The notes beneath the pieces were generated by a model. The model searched no databases. It was given only the letters and a program-made list of their open reading frames with translations, and was not told the origin of the DNA. A program made the translations under genes and the position numbers. A DNA stretch of 33,764 bases from a virus. Taxonomy: Duplodnaviria > Caudoviricetes. Positions 10,621 to 30,188 of the stretch are shown here, piece after piece (the first letter of the stretch is position 1; each line of letters begins with the position of its first letter). The stretch lies in the IMG/VR virus record IMGVR_UViG_3300032226_000257, positions 1-33,764 of that record, one strand, 5' to 3'.

Positions 10621-10908
10621 ATGCGCGGGCCTTGGGAGTACGAAGACCCAGCTTGTGCTGATGTAGGTGGTGATTTCTGGTTTCCTGAATTCAATCAAGA
10701 AGTTGCATTCCTTGTCAGCAAAGACGAAAGACAGATAGAAGCCCAAATAGCAAAAAGCATTTGTAATGGTTGTACTCATAAAATTGAGTGTCAACAATGG
10801 GGACTAAGGAAAGAAAGATTCGGCATCTGGGGCGGTCTAACTGAAAGAGATCGTATACCAATTCGTAGACGCTTGAATATAATCATAAAGGAGGAGAGCG
10901 TTGCTTGA
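10621..10908 (+). CDS. whiB: WhiB-family Fe-S transcription factor
   Basis: Four Cys (C...CxxC-x5-C) and the GIWGGLTERDR signature. Confidence 0.93.
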   Translation: MRGPWEYEDPACADVGGDFWFPEFNQEVAFLVSKDERQIEAQIAKSICNGCTHKIECQQWGLRKERFGIWGGLTERDRIPIRRRLNIIIKEESVA

Positions 10909-15441: not shown

Positions 15442-16022
15442 CATACCCTAATTGGTTTAGACAGATAGCCCAGCATAACTTCGAGGAGTTCCTCCTCCCA
15501 CTAGCGGGTAAAGAGTGGCTACGATTCTTACAGCTTGGTTGCTTTACTGGAGATGCCAGCGTATGGCTATGTCAGAACGTACTCACTGGTGAACACAGTT
15601 ACCTTGATGACGTGGATACGTGGCGCGGTGCGCCTAACGAACCTATCCAAACACAGATGGACTTCGATGATGTCTATGCTACATACCTTGCCAAGACCGA
15701 AGGTATGCCTATCGTAGTTAATCGCAAGACAACTACCGAGTATCTACTAGACCACGATAACGCAGTGATGCGCCCTTCCTTCTTCGACTTCATCTACGTG
15801 GACGCACACCACACGTCAGCTTCTGCCTTCCTCGATAGTGAACTATCGTGGCCTCTCCTTAAGTCAGATGGCATACTCGCAATAGATGACTACGAGTGGC
15901 AGCACCCTGATGGCGTTGATATACACGCACCTAAGCTGGGCATACATATGTTCCTTGATCGCCACGAAGGTGAGTACACCGAACTCGTACGCAACCAGCA
16001 GCTATGGATTAGAAAGCGATAA
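15438..16022 (+). CDS. Class I SAM-dependent methyltransferase (Methyltransf_24-like)
   Basis: LQLGCFTGDAS, VDTW, FDFIYVDAHH and LLKSDGILAIDDY motifs. Confidence 0.85.
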   Translation: MTYPNWFRQIAQHNFEEFLLPLAGKEWLRFLQLGCFTGDASVWLCQNVLTGEHSYLDDVDTWRGAPNEPIQTQMDFDDVYATYLAKTEGMPIVVNRKTTTEYLLDHDNAVMRPSFFDFIYVDAHHTSASAFLDSELSWPLLKSDGILAIDDYEWQHPDGVDIHAPKLGIHMFLDRHEGEYTELVRNQQLWIRKR

Positions 16023-16053
16023 ACCCCGCCGGAAAGAGTAACGGCGGGGCTTA
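16021..16053. terminator. Probable bidirectional terminator between convergent operons
   Basis: CCCCGCCG-10 nt-CGGCGGGG stem with short T tracts on both strands. Confidence 0.75.
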
Positions 16054-16086
16054 TCAGAGGAGGGCTTGGTTAGTGTAGCACAAGTA

Positions 16087-19431: not shown

Positions 19432-19584
19432 TTACTTATACTCCGCCCAGATGTCGGTCTCTTCGATGCCTTCGCCGTAGACTTCACGGAGATAGTCGAG
19501 GGCGTAGCGAACGCCTTCGGCGTATGCCATTGTAGATTGCTTACGCATCTCTGCGGCGTTAGCTTGTATCTCTTTCATATCCAT
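19432..19584 (-). CDS. Hypothetical early protein (50 aa), directly downstream of the ribozyme
   Basis: MDMKEIQANAAEMRKQSTMAYAEGVRYALDYLREVYGEGIEETDIWAEYK; AAGGAGG RBS. Confidence 0.7.
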   Translation of the reverse strand: MDMKEIQANAAEMRKQSTMAYAEGVRYALDYLREVYGEGIEETDIWAEYK

Positions 19585-19609
19585 TTACTTGCCTCCTTCT
19601 GTAGCTGAT

Positions 19610-19659
19610 GACCTCATCAGTAGCCGAGTAACGGCTAGACGCCTCACGGCGTTTCGGTC
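19610..19659 (-). ncRNA. Type II hammerhead ribozyme
   Basis: Minus strand: GACC GAA ACGCC gtga GGCGT C TAGCCG ttact CGGCTA CTGATGA GGTC. All core nucleotides (GAAA, GUC triplet, CUGAUGA) and three Watson-Crick stems are present; predicted cut between 19638 and 19637. Confidence 0.93.
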
Positions 19660-19763
19660 TATAGCTCTACGAGCCTATCGTCCGTGAATTGCTCGCAGTA
19701 CTTGCAGACTTGCATACCACGGACTACGGAAGCTACCTTCCGAGCTGAGCATATCTCGCACAT
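19659..19763 (-). CDS. First early gene, Zn-finger micro-protein (34 aa)
   Basis: MCEICSARKVASVVRGMQVCKYCEQFTDDRLVEL; AAAGGGG RBS just downstream of the promoter. Confidence 0.65.
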   Translation of the reverse strand: MCEICSARKVASVVRGMQVCKYCEQFTDDRLVEL

Positions 19764-19793: not shown

Positions 19794-19822
19794 ATTATTG
19801 CCTATGGGGTATAGCGTGTCAA
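19794..19822 (-). promoter_or_regulatory. Housekeeping-sigma promoter for the early operon
   Basis: TTGACA (19822-19817), 17 nt spacer, AATAAT (19799-19794). Confidence 0.75.
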
Positions 19823-19974: not shown

Positions 19975-20073
19975 ATCTTTACATAATGGGGCAGATTGTC
20001 AACCATTTACAGTTACAGCTTAAATGTCTAGGGTGCCGGAGCTGGAGTCAGCCCTCCATTTTTTTACAGAAAC

Positions 20074-20118
20074 TTATCCACAACCCTTATCCACAGCTGG
20101 GGACAAACCTGTGGACAG
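20074..20118. promoter_or_regulatory. Cluster of four DnaA boxes
   Basis: TTATCCACA at 20074-20082 and 20087-20095; inverted TTGTCCCCA (20098-20106) and CTGTCCACA (20110-20118). Confidence 0.8.
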
Positions 20119-20236
20119 CCCACAACGCGCTCGGGCGCGTCCCCCCGTGTTAAAATCTGGCGCGGGTGGTCCCTATACTCCCCAGAAAAATATATTTCCT
20201 AAAGTGAAAGTGGCTCTGACCTGCGGTTATACTGTA

Positions 20237-20252
20237 TGTGTTACAACTCACA
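20237..20252. promoter_or_regulatory. CRP/GlxR-like site
   Basis: TGTGT-N6-TCACA, one mismatch from TGTGA-N6-TCACA. Confidence 0.45.
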
Positions 20253-20550
20253 GTAGTAAATGTGAGAAATCGAGTCCAATACTCGCCTTATATATAGTAG
20301 GGGAGAAAAGTACGGGGAAGTAGTTTTCGAGCAGTGCGCTACGGGGTGAAACCCCTTCGCGTAGCCCCCTAGGGCGAAGCGAGCTGTACCACTAAATGCG
20401 GGATAGGTCTATCTAAATCTAGATCACTGATATCCCAGTATGTGAGACAATCTGCCCAGTAGTGAAATCGAAGATTTCTATTAAAAGTTGCAACTTCCCT
20501 AGTATAAAAGAAGAGCCATCACGGCCGATTTTTAGAAAAGGAATACCAGT

Positions 20551-20700
20551 ATGATTATCTACGAGTCAGACCGTAAGAACAAGAAGCACTACACGGCGTC
20601 CCGCCGTAAGGCTGACCAAGAATTTTTGAAGCAAGCACGCCGCCGAATCGCGGCAGCTATTCTGGTAGAAGAGGCCCGACGCAAGGAAGCCAATGCCTGA
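20551..20700 (+). CDS. Small basic protein (49 aa) upstream of terminase
   Basis: MIIYESDRKNKKHYTASRRKADQEFLKQARRRIAAAILVEEARRKEANA; AAAGGA RBS. Confidence 0.55.
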   Translation: MIIYESDRKNKKHYTASRRKADQEFLKQARRRIAAAILVEEARRKEANA

Positions 20701-24911: not shown

Positions 24912-25320
24912 AGACGCTACTAACCCTATGCAGGGTGTATCAGGTCCTGGACCATACTCAAAGCGTACAGATCTTGCCTACCAGTCAGAGTCTTACGGCG
25001 ACGGCGTAAAGTATGATGCAGAGAAATCAGGCGCTCCACTCTCACGTGCACCTAAGTCACCATTACTTTCACAAGCCCCACGCATTTCAGGCGCAGGTGG
25101 CGGAGCAGCAGGTGTTGGTCTTTATGAACCATCACAGCGCCCAGGCGAAGATATTACAACAGGTGTAGATGTAGGACCAGGTGCTGGATCTGAAGCCTTA
25201 ATGATGCAGTCTAAGTTTGCTGAGCGCAAATTGTCAGATATCTTGGCAGAAATGATTCCCTACGATCCTACTGGAGAAATTCAGTACCTCTATCAAAATG
25301 CTTTGTCTAGAGGTCAGTAG
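24901..25320 (+). CDS. Putative virion / small ejection protein
   Basis: 139 aa, VSGPGPYSKRTD motif, AGGAGG RBS. Confidence 0.6.
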   Translation: MALEDATNPMQGVSGPGPYSKRTDLAYQSESYGDGVKYDAEKSGAPLSRAPKSPLLSQAPRISGAGGGAAGVGLYEPSQRPGEDITTGVDVGPGAGSEALMMQSKFAERKLSDILAEMIPYDPTGEIQYLYQNALSRGQ

Positions 25321-28300
25321 TGTCAGACTCATTGAGGGCTGCGTCATACGCAGCAGGACTGTCAGAAAAAGATAAAAGAAAAGTAGATAACCTTAGCAAA
25401 GCATTAGCCGTACACAAAAACTTGCTTGCTATGCCATCAGAGGCAGCTAACGCTATCTATAAGACACTTCCTGAATCTCAACAGCAGAATCTTGTAGACA
25501 ATTTTGGCAATGAATCAGAAGAAGAAAAGCCAAAGGGATTACTCGGTACTGCAAACCATTATACTTTTTATCAAGGCTACAAGGCACTAAACTTTCTAGC
25601 CGATAGAACTAGCCAGGCTTATCGCGCAATAGCCATACCTCTTATTGAGCGTAAGGAAATTGGGTTTGCTTGGGATGAAGCAGGCAAAGACGGCGAAAAG
25701 GTTTACAACTCTGGACGTCTTGAAGCAGCAACCAGAAAATATGGCGATGCTCAAATTAAGATTGCTCAAAAAATCAGCGAAGGCGTAGATGTAGAAGATT
25801 TAATTCAGAGCGCTACTGAAGAAGAAAAGTATTATCTTCGTATTGCAGATCCTAGAAATAAAGAATCAAACAGAGAAGCAAGAGAAGAATTTGACGAAGC
25901 ACTAAATGCTGTTAATGCTGCAAAGTTTTCTCCTGGTCGCCAACTAGCAAACCTTGTCGATATTGCAACACCTGGTGATTTTTACGAACAGGGCTTCTTT
26001 TACAAGATGGTATCTGGCGTTGGCGATGCTATATTCCGTTTACGCACAGACCCTTTTCTTGTACTAAGTAAAGCAAAAAGACTTTACGATATTAACCATT
26101 ACGCGGTTGATGTAGTCGCATCACAGGCTGGTGGTAAAGGCGTAAGATTTGATAAGTACTTTGACCAACCTTCAACCATAGAGTTATGGGATAAAGCAGG
26201 CGCTTCTCTTAAAAAACTAAAAGAAGCCAAAGGCAAGAACCCTCAAGCTGCAGCAGAAGCAAGAAAAGAACTTGCTATACTTATGCCAGAATTTGGCCCA
26301 AGAGTAATAGATGAGTTTATTAAGGGACCTGCTCCTATCACAAGCGTTACTACCGCTAAGGCTTGGTTTGAAAACAGTAGAGATGTCTTAAAGGTCGTTA
26401 CTGAAGGAGCCGTAGCTCGTCAAAGAGTTATTTTGCCTCGTATGACTCCTTCTCGCAAGGCACGAGTATTTACACTAACTCAGGCAAACAAAGTCTTTGA
26501 TATTGGGAAAGTATCTCCAACCCTAGTGAACGCAGTATTTGGTTCTCCAAATAACGCAGATGGTTTACTTGACGATCTTGTTAATATGGAACCTGGTAAG
26601 TTAAGAGAAGCTCTAGATGGTGTTAGAGTAAAAGGAACTGCTAGATTTTCTATGCTTCAAATAGCATATGGTCTGGACAAGATTAAACGATCATTGACTC
26701 CAGTACCAATGTTTAAGAATGAAGAGTTTGACTTACTTGCAAAAGATGCACCAGACCAAATCTATCGTCTTGCTGCAATCTTTATGCCTACAAACTTTGC
26801 TTCATTGATGAAGGAAGTATATTCTGGAACAGATTCTATCGCTAAGAAAATGAGTCTGTACCAAGCACTCTTAAAGCAGACCAACAATGCTAGAGGTTTA
26901 GATTTAACAGATACCGGAAATACAGTATCTAGAATCCTGAGCAGAAAAGGTGATGTTCGCTACGGTCTAGGCGAAGGTGAATTGTCTAGAAAAGCGTTAT
27001 TACCTAGTGAGATGAATACAACAGTCTCTGCTCCAAGCCTTGCAGATTTAGATATTCTAGCAGGCAAGAGCACCATTGCAAAAGTGGTACTAGGAACAGC
27101 TAACAGCAAATGGGTAGAAAGCATTACCAATGGTTGGTCATTCTTAACTCTTGCAGGTCCTCGTTATGCAATTAGAAATGCTGGCGAAGACTTAATGATT
27201 GGTCTTGCTATAGGAACAAGCCCTTGGGGTCTTGCAAAGCAAAGATATGTTTCCACTAGACTCAATACAGTCTTGCAAACCGCAAAAGGGCTAGACAAGA
27301 TGGAAGCCTTTGCTGCAAATCCACTTGGCGTTATGCTTCGTTTTGTAAATAAAAAAGAAGCAGAGAGTAACGCAGCAAAAATAAAGGCTCTTGATGAAGA
27401 GATAGTCACAGGAAGAGAAGAACTCTTCCGTCTCAAAAAAGAACTTTATAGTATGACTGCGGTAACGTATGATGCTAAGAAGTCAAAAGAACTCGCTAAA
27501 CAAATTTCAGATTTAGAAGATAGAATTGAAGGTGGAGTTGCTGGTCAAGTCAGAAAGATAATGGCAGAATCTTTATCTAAGGGCAAGATAGACACCTTCC
27601 TTCGCCAATTTGGAATTAAACTTGTAGACGACGAGTCTATTGATATTTTAACTGACCAGGTTATTTACGGAAATATCGACAATCTTTTATCTGAGGTATC
27701 TGAAGGTGCAGGAAACTTTGCCACAGGTTCTACCTACAACGAATCTGCACTGCAGTTAGTCAAGGATCTTGGAGTAGACGTTAGACCACTTAGACTGGAT
27801 TTAACTACTTCAAAAAACAGATACACAGTAGCTGCTAACAAGGCAGGCTTTGGTACCAGAGCGATTACTAGCGACAAGAGCGAATCCTCATTAGTTGGGT
27901 ACCTCCTACGTTTAAGCTTTTATGGCAACGATGAACTTGGTTCTCTTGCTTTGGCGAACGCAGACCTTCCTGAAGAGCAGACAATGAAGATACTTCTTAA
28001 TTGGCTAAGAGACTCACGAGGCACAAAATTAAAGTCTGAAGCAACTGCAATCAATGAACTTGATGTAGATGACATTACATATGCAAGAGAAGTCCTCAAT
28101 AGAGCTAAGCAGTTAATTACACGCAGGTCAGATGGAACAGTCAACAAGGAACTTTTAGATAAGATTCGCCAGTATGACCCATCTACTCCTTTGGGAACTG
28201 GTGTTAAGACCTATACTATTACAGGTAAACTAGGTTTGGACGATGTTCGAGGCCTTGATATCGATGACTTGCCAGCAGAATACGTTGGTCCAGAATTAGT

Positions 28301-30188
28301 TCCTGTTGTTGAAGAGTCACAGCGTACCTATAACCTGATGAAAAACGGTTGGGTTTGGCTTGGTCTTGCTAATGCACGTCTATCACGTCAGCCTATGGCT
28401 CTTTATGAAGCAGTTCGTATCCGTAAGGAAATGAGAAGCAGCGGTTTTGAGCAGAAGTTTATTGACGACTGGACAAAAGGCTTTAGCGAAGGAAGTCCTA
28501 ACTACGCAGCTGCAGTAAAAGCTGCTAAAACAGAGCTAGCAAAGGCTGCAGAAGAACGAGCAATCGGACAAGTATTGTCTTATGTGGACAATCCTTTGAT
28601 TAGATCTCAGGGTTCATTTGCTATCCGTAACTTTGCACGTTTCTACCGTGCTCAAGAAGACTTCTATAGAAGACTAGGTCGCCTTGCAAGATACAATCCA
28701 GAGGCGTTTGCAAAAGCCGCTGCAGTATTTGATGGCATAGACCACAATGGATTTATCCAGAAGGATGACCAGGGTAATTCTTATTTTGTTTACCCTCACT
28801 TTGCTCCTGGATACAGGGCAGTGCAAGTTGCACTAAAGGGAATGGGCATACCTCAAGACTTCAAGGTGCCATTCCCAGTACAGTTTGGTGGGTCTATTAA
28901 GATGCTCACACCATCTTTGAACCCAGACTCAATTCTTCCAACATTCTCTGGACCATTAGCTGCGCTATCTGTTACAACGCTAACCAACGTAGCAAACTTC
29001 TTGCCGTTTGAGGGAGCACAGCAGAACGCAGATACAATTACAGGTATGGTTTTAGGTAAGTATGCAGTAGATCAACCTCTTCTATCTAGACTAATGCCTG
29101 CTCACGTCAACCGAGCCATATCTGCTTTGAATCAAGATGAGAGAGATTCTCAGTATGCTTCTGCATACCGTAAAGCAATCACATATCTAGAAGCATCAGG
29201 TAATGGTTTGCAAGAAAAGATTGATGCAAACGGAAATGTAATAGCACCATCTCTTGCTGAAAGAGAAGCTTACAGAGAGAAGCTAAAGAATACGACTTTG
29301 TCTATTCTTGCTGTACGTTTTGTATACGGCTTCTTTGCACCTGCTTCACCATCAGTACAGTTAAAATCAGAAATGTCAGACTGGATTAGAGATTCCGATA
29401 GGGCTAGCTGGAAGCAAGTCTGGTACGGATTGCTTGAAAAGAACAATGGCAACACAGATGCGGCTATGCAAAAGTGGGTAGAACTATACCCAAATCAGGT
29501 TCCATACACTGTATCTGAATCAGAGCGCAAGACTGTTGCTTACTTCCAATCAGCTGAAGACGCAGGCAAGTTTGTTGATGAGAATGGCGAACTGTTCAAA
29601 ACTTACAAAGACGGTGCAGCTTTCTTGATTCCGCATCAAGGAGCATTCTCTTGGGACGCCTATAAGACTATGAAAGATATGGGCTTAAGAGAGAATAAAA
29701 GAGTAGAAGACTACTTGTTGGAAGTACAGACAGCGGCTGATGCTCAGACTTATTACGACAGAAAAGATGAGTTCGATAACTCTATTACCAATATAGTAGA
29801 TCCAGAAACCAGGAAGATACTTCGCAGACAGTACAATACCTGGAAAGATACCTATATGGCAGGCCGTCCAATGCTAGAAGAATATCTAGGCAAGGGTAGA
29901 GAAAAGGCAATAGAAAGAGTTAGAGCACTAGATGATTTATCAGCTATGCTTGATGACCCTAGATTCTCAAACATCCGACCTTCTACACAAAATGTTCTAC
30001 GTGAAATGGTAGAAGCTTACCAAGGATATGTAAAGCAAAAAGATGTGTTTGATTTAATCGGTGGAAACGCTGACACCATAGATGTCATTAGGACTGGAAC
30101 ACTAAGAAGAATAAAAGACTTGTCTGGTTTTAATGAAAACACAATGGCAGCATATATGTCCATATTTAGTAGATTGCTAGGAGAGTAA
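25320..30188 (+). CDS. Large internal virion (DNA ejection) protein
   Basis: 1622 aa, helical, in the head module; functional call from size and position only. Confidence 0.6.
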   Translation: MSDSLRAASYAAGLSEKDKRKVDNLSKALAVHKNLLAMPSEAANAIYKTLPESQQQNLVDNFGNESEEEKPKGLLGTANHYTFYQGYKALNFLADRTSQAYRAIAIPLIERKEIGFAWDEAGKDGEKVYNSGRLEAATRKYGDAQIKIAQKISEGVDVEDLIQSATEEEKYYLRIADPRNKESNREAREEFDEALNAVNAAKFSPGRQLANLVDIATPGDFYEQGFFYKMVSGVGDAIFRLRTDPFLVLSKAKRLYDINHYAVDVVASQAGGKGVRFDKYFDQPSTIELWDKAGASLKKLKEAKGKNPQAAAEARKELAILMPEFGPRVIDEFIKGPAPITSVTTAKAWFENSRDVLKVVTEGAVARQRVILPRMTPSRKARVFTLTQANKVFDIGKVSPTLVNAVFGSPNNADGLLDDLVNMEPGKLREALDGVRVKGTARFSMLQIAYGLDKIKRSLTPVPMFKNEEFDLLAKDAPDQIYRLAAIFMPTNFASLMKEVYSGTDSIAKKMSLYQALLKQTNNARGLDLTDTGNTVSRILSRKGDVRYGLGEGELSRKALLPSEMNTTVSAPSLADLDILAGKSTIAKVVLGTANSKWVESITNGWSFLTLAGPRYAIRNAGEDLMIGLAIGTSPWGLAKQRYVSTRLNTVLQTAKGLDKMEAFAANPLGVMLRFVNKKEAESNAAKIKALDEEIVTGREELFRLKKELYSMTAVTYDAKKSKELAKQISDLEDRIEGGVAGQVRKIMAESLSKGKIDTFLRQFGIKLVDDESIDILTDQVIYGNIDNLLSEVSEGAGNFATGSTYNESALQLVKDLGVDVRPLRLDLTTSKNRYTVAANKAGFGTRAITSDKSESSLVGYLLRLSFYGNDELGSLALANADLPEEQTMKILLNWLRDSRGTKLKSEATAINELDVDDITYAREVLNRAKQLITRRSDGTVNKELLDKIRQYDPSTPLGTGVKTYTITGKLGLDDVRGLDIDDLPAEYVGPELVPVVEESQRTYNLMKNGWVWLGLANARLSRQPMALYEAVRIRKEMRSSGFEQKFIDDWTKGFSEGSPNYAAAVKAAKTELAKAAEERAIGQVLSYVDNPLIRSQGSFAIRNFARFYRAQEDFYRRLGRLARYNPEAFAKAAAVFDGIDHNGFIQKDDQGNSYFVYPHFAPGYRAVQVALKGMGIPQDFKVPFPVQFGGSIKMLTPSLNPDSILPTFSGPLAALSVTTLTNVANFLPFEGAQQNADTITGMVLGKYAVDQPLLSRLMPAHVNRAISALNQDERDSQYASAYRKAITYLEASGNGLQEKIDANGNVIAPSLAEREAYREKLKNTTLSILAVRFVYGFFAPASPSVQLKSEMSDWIRDSDRASWKQVWYGLLEKNNGNTDAAMQKWVELYPNQVPYTVSESERKTVAYFQSAEDAGKFVDENGELFKTYKDGAAFLIPHQGAFSWDAYKTMKDMGLRENKRVEDYLLEVQTAADAQTYYDRKDEFDNSITNIVDPETRKILRRQYNTWKDTYMAGRPMLEEYLGKGREKAIERVRALDDLSAMLDDPRFSNIRPSTQNVLREMVEAYQGYVKQKDVFDLIGGNADTIDVIRTGTLRRIKDLSGFNENTMAAYMSIFSRLLGE

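Follow-up and report, generated by a model that had tools for sequence, protein, structure and literature searches.

Between the first two genes of a leftward early gene run in a 33.8-kb virus record (84% complete; all 33,764 nt of it are here called the window) lies a sequence that can fold into a hammerhead ribozyme. The locus raises the question of what such a ribozyme would do to the early message, and why nucleotides of its catalytic core can also pair into a second hairpin. Perreault et al. (2011; PMC3088659, RF02276) described, in the accessible part of the paper, type II hammerheads in gene-flanking prophage and phage clusters and proposed that they cut long transcripts; both the phage intergenic layout and the processing idea have thus been known since 2011. 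The role of bacterial and phage hammerheads is still called an open question in the available text of PMC6765202.

The element and its genomic setting

Genes for a portal protein, a helicase, a primase and a sigma factor were identified in the window, together with a terminase gene at 20693 and a WhiB gene at 10621-10908 (PF02467). Since WhiB is encoded and the terminase is ~43% identical to those of Streptomyces phages, the host is probably an actinobacterium. A putative sigma-70-like promoter at 19822-19794 on the minus strand faces a series of about 20 small leftward ORFs. The promoter scan returned four sites in total, a number at chance level (mean 4.6); the relative L335 retains the -35 hexamer of the early promoter. 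Between 16040 and 19800 there are 23 ORFs with a Shine-Dalgarno (SD)-like motif, three of which are overlapping alternatives, and the run is presumably carried on one transcript. The features are as follows.

19794 to 19822, minus strand: putative sigma-70-like early promoter (TTGACA, 17 nt, AATAAT; 11 of 12 consensus matches)
19659 to 19763, minus strand: gene 1, a 34-aa CxxC...CxxC protein, whose stop codon TAG (19661-19659) overlaps the ribozyme
19656 to 19660, minus strand: A19660, the predicted partner of U1.7, and the stem II 5' strand GACC (19659-19656)
19638 to 19655, minus strand: GAAA, stem III with a GUGA loop, and the GUC triplet; predicted cut 19638/19637
19621 to 19637, minus strand: stem I, 6 bp, loop UUACU, U19631 being U1.7; first hairpin of the 3' product
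19614 to 19620, minus strand: catalytic core CUGAUGA (direct reading and Rfam match)
19610 to 19613, minus strand: stem II 3' strand GGUC (pairwise check)
19605 to 19620, minus strand: 6-bp hairpin over the core with loop AGGU, which cannot form alongside stem II and the core
19582 to 19598, minus strand: gene 2 SD AAGGAGG, a spacer with AGUAA, and the start codon; includes GGCAAGTAA
16087 to 19584, minus strand: run of about 20 small early ORFs 3' of the predicted cut
16019 to 16056 (ends approximate), minus strand: strong hairpin after the last early ORF, a candidate terminator (-26.3 kcal/mol, z -6.4)

The original prediction of a complete type II hammerhead on the coding strand held up when the minus strand was read and every pair was checked. 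A CUGANGA core, GAAA and a NUH triplet are present and ordered around a three-way junction, and stems I, II and III measure 6, 4 and 4 bp. Loops cap stems I and III, and stem II is open, as in the type II permutation. GAAA occupies 19655-19652, and the stem III strands 19651-19648 and 19643-19640 form 4 bp plus A15.1-U16.1 (hammerhead positions are numbered by the usual convention). The GUC triplet was located at 19640-19638, which places the predicted cleavage between 19638 and 19637 as proposed, and the downstream product would begin with the stem I hairpin, fully paired over 6 bp (19637-19632 with 19626-19621). In the core-covering hairpin, 19620-19615 pair with 19610-19605. The ribozyme had also been placed between the stop of gene 1 and the ribosome binding site of gene 2; the elements are at these places, with the correction that the ribozyme overlaps the stop codon, which supplies the first base of stem II (its G) and the one directly before it (its A). 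This order of stop codon, ribozyme and next ribosome binding site within a run of phage genes fits that of gene-flanking phage hammerheads.

The suggested Infernal search gave a mixed outcome. The model RF02276 Hammerhead_II matches 19599-19659, but at 22.9 bits (E 0.016) the match falls short of the gathering threshold, 37, and the scan of the whole window at gathering scores returned no Rfam match. When the window was dinucleotide-shuffled 100 times, no descriptor match as good as the real one arose, and a single loose match was seen over all 100. In the virus's own genome a family search found no matches at E 0.001, with the controls silent as well, and BLAST of the region against cultured phages gave only six short matches, at chance level. 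A hammerhead on the opposite strand was considered and rejected: the plus strand reads CUGAUGA at 19605-19611, but no GAAA is in position after it. Judged by its sequence and pairing, the element around 19659-19605 is a genuine type II hammerhead.

On the minus strand the gene 2 signals lie at 19598-19592 (SD AAGGAGG), 19589-19585 (AGUAA) and 19584 (ATG). The gene 1 product had no match in PHROGs and Pfam searches. The sequence GGCAAGTAA, which combines SD spacer, stop and start, occurs at 19593, 19236, 19132 and 18989 (minus strand), that is, at four early gene junctions of the operon. EGK ends three of the upstream proteins, and the motif may be a recombination point for early-gene shuffling. 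As a separate observation, the AUG within the catalytic core starts a 10-codon frame (19617-19585, minus strand) whose stop directly precedes the gene 2 start; this AUG is not conserved, since many relatives have a C at core position 7.

A compact subclass and its core-covering hairpin

To place the element among its relatives, viral and metagenome contigs as well as genomes were scanned with sequence patterns; the frequencies describe these samples and not whole collections, and each count covers the members with sufficient flanking sequence. Viral contig scans and terminase loci gave 318 distinct type II hammerheads among the matches listed; the stem I segment spans 16-18 nt in 196 of them and 20-25 nt in 122. 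The shorter ones form a compact subclass with a 6-bp stem I, an unpaired U1.7, a 4-bp stem II and no pseudoknot. Among the matches listed, 182 of these 196 have a stem II of exactly 4 bp and 191 have an A directly before it. U1.7 was required by one scan pattern and was counted only in sets not selected for it, where it is present in 45/50 and 114/115 of the members listed. Among the matches listed, 250 of 299 compact members have an upstream ORF of at least 40 codons whose end lies 12 nt or less before G12, compared with 14-21 of 299 in three control windows, and the upstream stop lies at -6..-4 in 115/299. Covariation in related phages, which the original prediction proposed as a check, was found: in 27 relatives all six stem I pairs have changed on both sides, and core position 7 covaries with its tail partner as detailed below. 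The stem II pairs hold in many different sequence types, in part because the search defined them so.

In the accessible text, the type II hammerheads of Perreault et al. share with the window element the permutation, core, cleavage triplet, phage intergenic position and proposed role in mRNA processing. The window element differs from them in having no pseudoknot between loop I and the tail, a loop I of 5 nt that contains U1.7 and a stem II of 4 bp, and in scoring under the Rfam cut-off; a core-covering tail was not found in the part of that paper available. The cut-off of 37 is reached by only 2 of 21 window-type elements; compact relatives above it include L004 (39.2), L225 (38.6) and L303 (37.1). 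As most of the class falls under the cut-off, standard annotation undercounts compact hammerheads. A second likeness is to the minimal hammerheads of O'Rourke et al., which, as summarized in the available text of PMC11875169, make a Hoogsteen contact between U1.7 and an A in the stem II loop. They and the window element both have an unpaired U seven bases after the cut, a 4-bp stem II and an A where the last loop base would stand. In the window element, by contrast, stem II is open, the A often comes from the upstream stop codon, and the contact is suggested by conservation. U1.7 together with an A beside a 4-bp stem II is the geometry of that minimal class, and we infer the same contact here. 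Fig. S5 of PMC3088659, as far as that source is accessible, gives scores for a U...A tertiary motif in each of the three hammerhead types and may already cover the contact itself, and the type II alignment in Dataset S1 of the same paper may hold compact members.

The original prediction had loop I (UUACU) pairing with AGUAA between the SD and the start codon of gene 2, which would couple cleavage to translation. The window does contain this perfect 5-nt match, but such matches are at chance level and show no family-wide excess. Mean complementarity between loop I and tail in 171 compact members (matches listed) is 2.87 against 2.90 +/- 0.05 expected, and perfect 5-mers number 9 against a mean of 5.3 and a maximum of 11, whereas the same test detects the known pseudoknot of the long-stem-I class (4.56 vs 3.45 +/- 0.09). 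AGTAA also occurs eight times in the early operon, four of them inside the repeated junction motif GGCAAGTAA, and one related contig (a single contig among the matches listed) combines two loop I changes with indels across AGUAA. U1.7, moreover, is expected to be taken up by the contact with stem II. The pseudoknot of the Perreault type II consensus, at least 4 bp between loop I and the tail after stem II, is likewise absent from the compact class. We reject this pairing as very improbable.

The second hairpin, predicted to use the core and to exclude the active fold, fared differently: it is conserved in the compact class and covaries with core position 7. Among the matches listed, a helix of at least 5 bp between core and tail occurs in 65/196 compact viral hammerheads, with shuffled tails giving means of 19.7 and 23.3 and maxima of 32 and 34. 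In a distinct set, drawn from metagenomes by stem II GACC/GGUC and not by the tail, 100 of 115 members among the matches listed have a hairpin of at least 5 bp (null 32, maximum 46). Of these 100 hairpins, 85 are in a short register with a 3-nt loop (matches listed), which is weaker evidence because in 13 of 27 members an AG stands after GGCC as well. CUGAN has its exact complement in the first tail window of 37/317 members and in the next window of 0/317 (matches listed). A pattern scan of cellular genomes gave no such excess: at least eight hammerheads were found in 120 loci, with the hairpin in 2/8 against a null of 1.6.

The window-type register is present in 31 of 316 members among the matches listed. 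In these 31, core position 7 and its partner read U-A in 18, C-G in 11, U-G in one, U-U in one and C-A in none. In members without this hairpin a core-7 C stands opposite A in 37 and opposite G in 4 (matches listed). With one member per cluster (n=19), the core-7 covariation has a median Fisher p of 0.005 and a worst value of 0.02. An alignment of 27 equal-length members counts UA 15, CG 11 and UG 1 at this pair; these members were selected for UCAG, which makes the four invariant hairpin pairs uninformative. The fixed core leaves four of the six hairpin pairs without any variation. The pairing also ends at C3 and spares stem I: an extension into stem I is seen in 1/31 members (permutation mean 5.6, P 0.011) and in 6/114 of a second set (permutation mean 13.4, P 0.0065).

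Part of this pattern could come about without selection, if the element is an ordinary processing ribozyme and the hairpin a neutral by-product of template switching or slippage at a quasi-palindrome, spread by shared ancestry. The tail does resemble a 3-nt duplication in a GGUC context, the members are related (the largest cluster holds 102 of 316 among the matches listed, and relatedness was handled by crude clustering), and the hairpin is missing in most compact members, 131 of 196 among the matches listed. This would not readily give a repeated unit that matches core position 7, a pairing that ends at the stem I boundary, or a hairpin that occurs with eight stem II sequences and in several registers. 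It would also leave aside that the hairpin is nearly absent, 1/121 among the matches listed, from the long-stem-I members, in which the tail serves the pseudoknot. We therefore find the neutral reading improbable. A covarying hairpin built from the catalytic core implies that these nucleotides are also selected for a second fold, and on the comparisons above the core-covering hairpin is a real, selected feature of many compact hammerheads. Searches of the open-access literature turned up no natural type II hammerhead described as having a core-covering tail, and this second fold is apparently new to it. By sequence, then, a genuine hammerhead stands in a known setting, and the novelty lies in the compact subclass and its conserved core-covering hairpin. 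Single phages (L273, L100, L254, L227 and L239) carry compact hammerheads both with and without the hairpin.

Folding before and after the predicted cut

At which step the hairpin would act was approached through nearest-neighbour energies, which omit core and tertiary contacts. In the window the active fold has -21.0 kcal/mol, the active fold with an extended stem II -25.0 and the hairpin fold -22.3, with ensemble shares of 0.34 for the active and 0.63 for the hairpin fold. During transcription stem II forms first (P 0.98-0.995), before the tail is made, and the two folds then compete. Across the window-type register the hairpin is favoured over the active secondary structure by a median of 3.55 kcal/mol. 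With this lead it could also suppress cleavage, and the sequence fits an action before or after cutting. The 3' product folds as two adjacent hairpins in 71% of the ensemble (z -2.9), and the 5' product would be held by 4 bp only. A role in freeing the SD was tried and rejected, as forcing the core to be unpaired changes the predicted SD accessibility little.

An action before cutting would make the hairpin a switch or attenuator that competes with the active fold in uncut RNA. In one version a ribosome terminating on gene 1 would open stem II and let the inactive hairpin form, so that cleavage would be translation-dependent or merely delayed. The near-equal energies in the window and the overlap of the stop codon with stem II are in line with this, and no more than 5 nt beyond stem II the tail has been transcribed, probably ahead of cleavage. 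On the other hand, the hairpin is not enriched where the upstream stop lies at the ribozyme (50/64 vs 88/126, p 0.30, matches listed). The stem II extension into gene 1 codons is particular to the window; tried as a family feature it was rejected, since the real upstream sequence beats shuffled sequence in 15/30. The idea of a switch coupled to the upstream gene, raised in the original prediction, is thus left without family-wide support, and we hold a pre-cleavage switch to be unlikely, if still a serious possibility. The fuller form, a subclass with a built-in off fold in which the terminating ribosome would open the ribozyme, the tail would lock the core and translation of gene 1 would set cleavage, seems to us rather unlikely. 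If true, it would be a natural, ligand-free, ribosome-gated ribozyme switch that is widespread in phages.

We consider it the likeliest reading, and somewhat probable, that the hairpin acts after the cut, that is, that the compact hammerhead would cut the early polycistronic RNA once after gene 1 and that the hairpin would then lock the ribozyme and cap the downstream message. The ribozyme would fold when the terminating ribosome frees stem II, and U1.7 would pair with the stop-codon A, giving fast cleavage. Gene 1 would retain its stop codon and end in a 2',3'-cyclic phosphate, and the downstream message would carry a 5'-OH with its first base paired. The tail would then displace the 4-bp stem II and fold over the core, releasing the 5' product, blocking re-ligation and hiding the single-stranded CUGANGA linker. 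Some slowing of cleavage by the tail is also probable, given how little the two folds differ in energy. The result would be two stacked hairpins 6 nt before the SD, resembling a natural RiboJ insulator.

Actinobacteria have both RNase E, which prefers 5'-monophosphates, and RNase J, which needs an unpaired end. That self-processing stabilises the downstream message is plausible by analogy with RiboJ, in which the sTRSV hammerhead is joined to a 23-nt hairpin and which, in the accessible text of PMC6206723, raises mRNA about 2-fold and protein 2-10-fold in E. coli. Both RiboJ and, if cleaved as predicted, the window element leave a hairpin at the 5' end and have a second hairpin before the ribosome binding site. 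RiboJ differs, to go by the same text, in being engineered and in having an appended second hairpin without the catalytic core; this is a functional analogy with no family relation.

Cleavage could also work in the opposite direction, destabilising or uncoupling the downstream message and giving a short pulse of early proteins, with the hairpin only blocking pairing of the core with the SD or coding region. The precedent is glmS, which like the window element (as predicted) cleaves itself upstream of a coding region and leaves a 5'-OH, but which is ligand-dependent, has a different fold and triggers degradation, as stated in the part of PMC6765202 available; a 5'-OH alone therefore does not protect. 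Differing stabilities after processing have been proposed earlier, in the accessible sources without a direction. Against destabilisation, the first base of the product is paired in 317/317 compact members listed, partly by search definition, RiboJ in its available description raises mRNA, and the predicted SD accessibility changes little with an unpaired core. We judge this outcome quite improbable.

Precedents for the cleavage itself come from phage-associated type II hammerheads, three of which, near phage-like genes, cleave in vivo (PMC8782182, from the text available), and from HHphage of the haloviruses HF1/HF2, where the early transcript 5' end lies within 3 nt of the hammerhead cleavage site (PMC3088659, likewise in part). 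From that description HHphage resembles the window element in standing just upstream of a start codon in an early region, and differs in its core variant, its archaeal virus and its place upstream of a helicase gene. The natural versions with and without the hairpin, sometimes in one phage, make the processing, stabilising and switch ideas testable, and the compact element could serve as a very short natural insulator part.

Distribution among close relatives

Of 80 terminase loci 44 were scored, and 36 with less than ~1.7 kb of upstream DNA were left out. A type II hammerhead lies 1.1-2.3 kb upstream of the terminase in 11 of the 44. In each case it occupies a gene junction of the leftward operon, though the gene before it varies. 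The original prediction had named loss of the core and stems in close relatives as evidence against a ribozyme. The element is indeed lacking entirely in 33/44 scored loci, among them L002 (97%), L005 (95%), and L008 and L010 (91%), the closest with enough upstream DNA, but no decay was seen, and at these loci it appears to have been gained and lost whole. Eleven distinct standard-core elements of the clade have the hairpin with at least 5 bp in nine cases and with 4 bp in the other two. L335, the nearest ortholog, has the same sequence throughout the ribozyme and is uninformative on covariation. With the hairpin absent in the majority of compact members listed and the hammerhead in three quarters of the scored loci, neither can be essential.

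A scan of ten loci, eight of them hammerhead-free, found no other ribozyme at the Rfam gathering score in the same slot of these eight, and L038 and L042 are among the terminase relatives without a hammerhead; at such early gene junctions the search for other structured RNAs covered Rfam families. In L377 (199-251) a weak twister-P1 match (36.8 bits, cut-off 67.2) lies one gene upstream of a compact hammerhead. A type II hammerhead in L009 (1028-1070, minus strand) has one extra base between core and stem II together with a core-covering tail. Elsewhere in the window, positions 25320-30188 hold a 1622-aa ORF after the portal gene, for which PHROGs and Pfam searches gave no match. The stretch at 20020-20460 is non-coding, is conserved across many terminase relatives and contains runs such as tgtggataa; it may be an origin or the end of the genome. 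In L339 a GC-rich inverted repeat lies before the SD, upstream of the gene 2 homolog.
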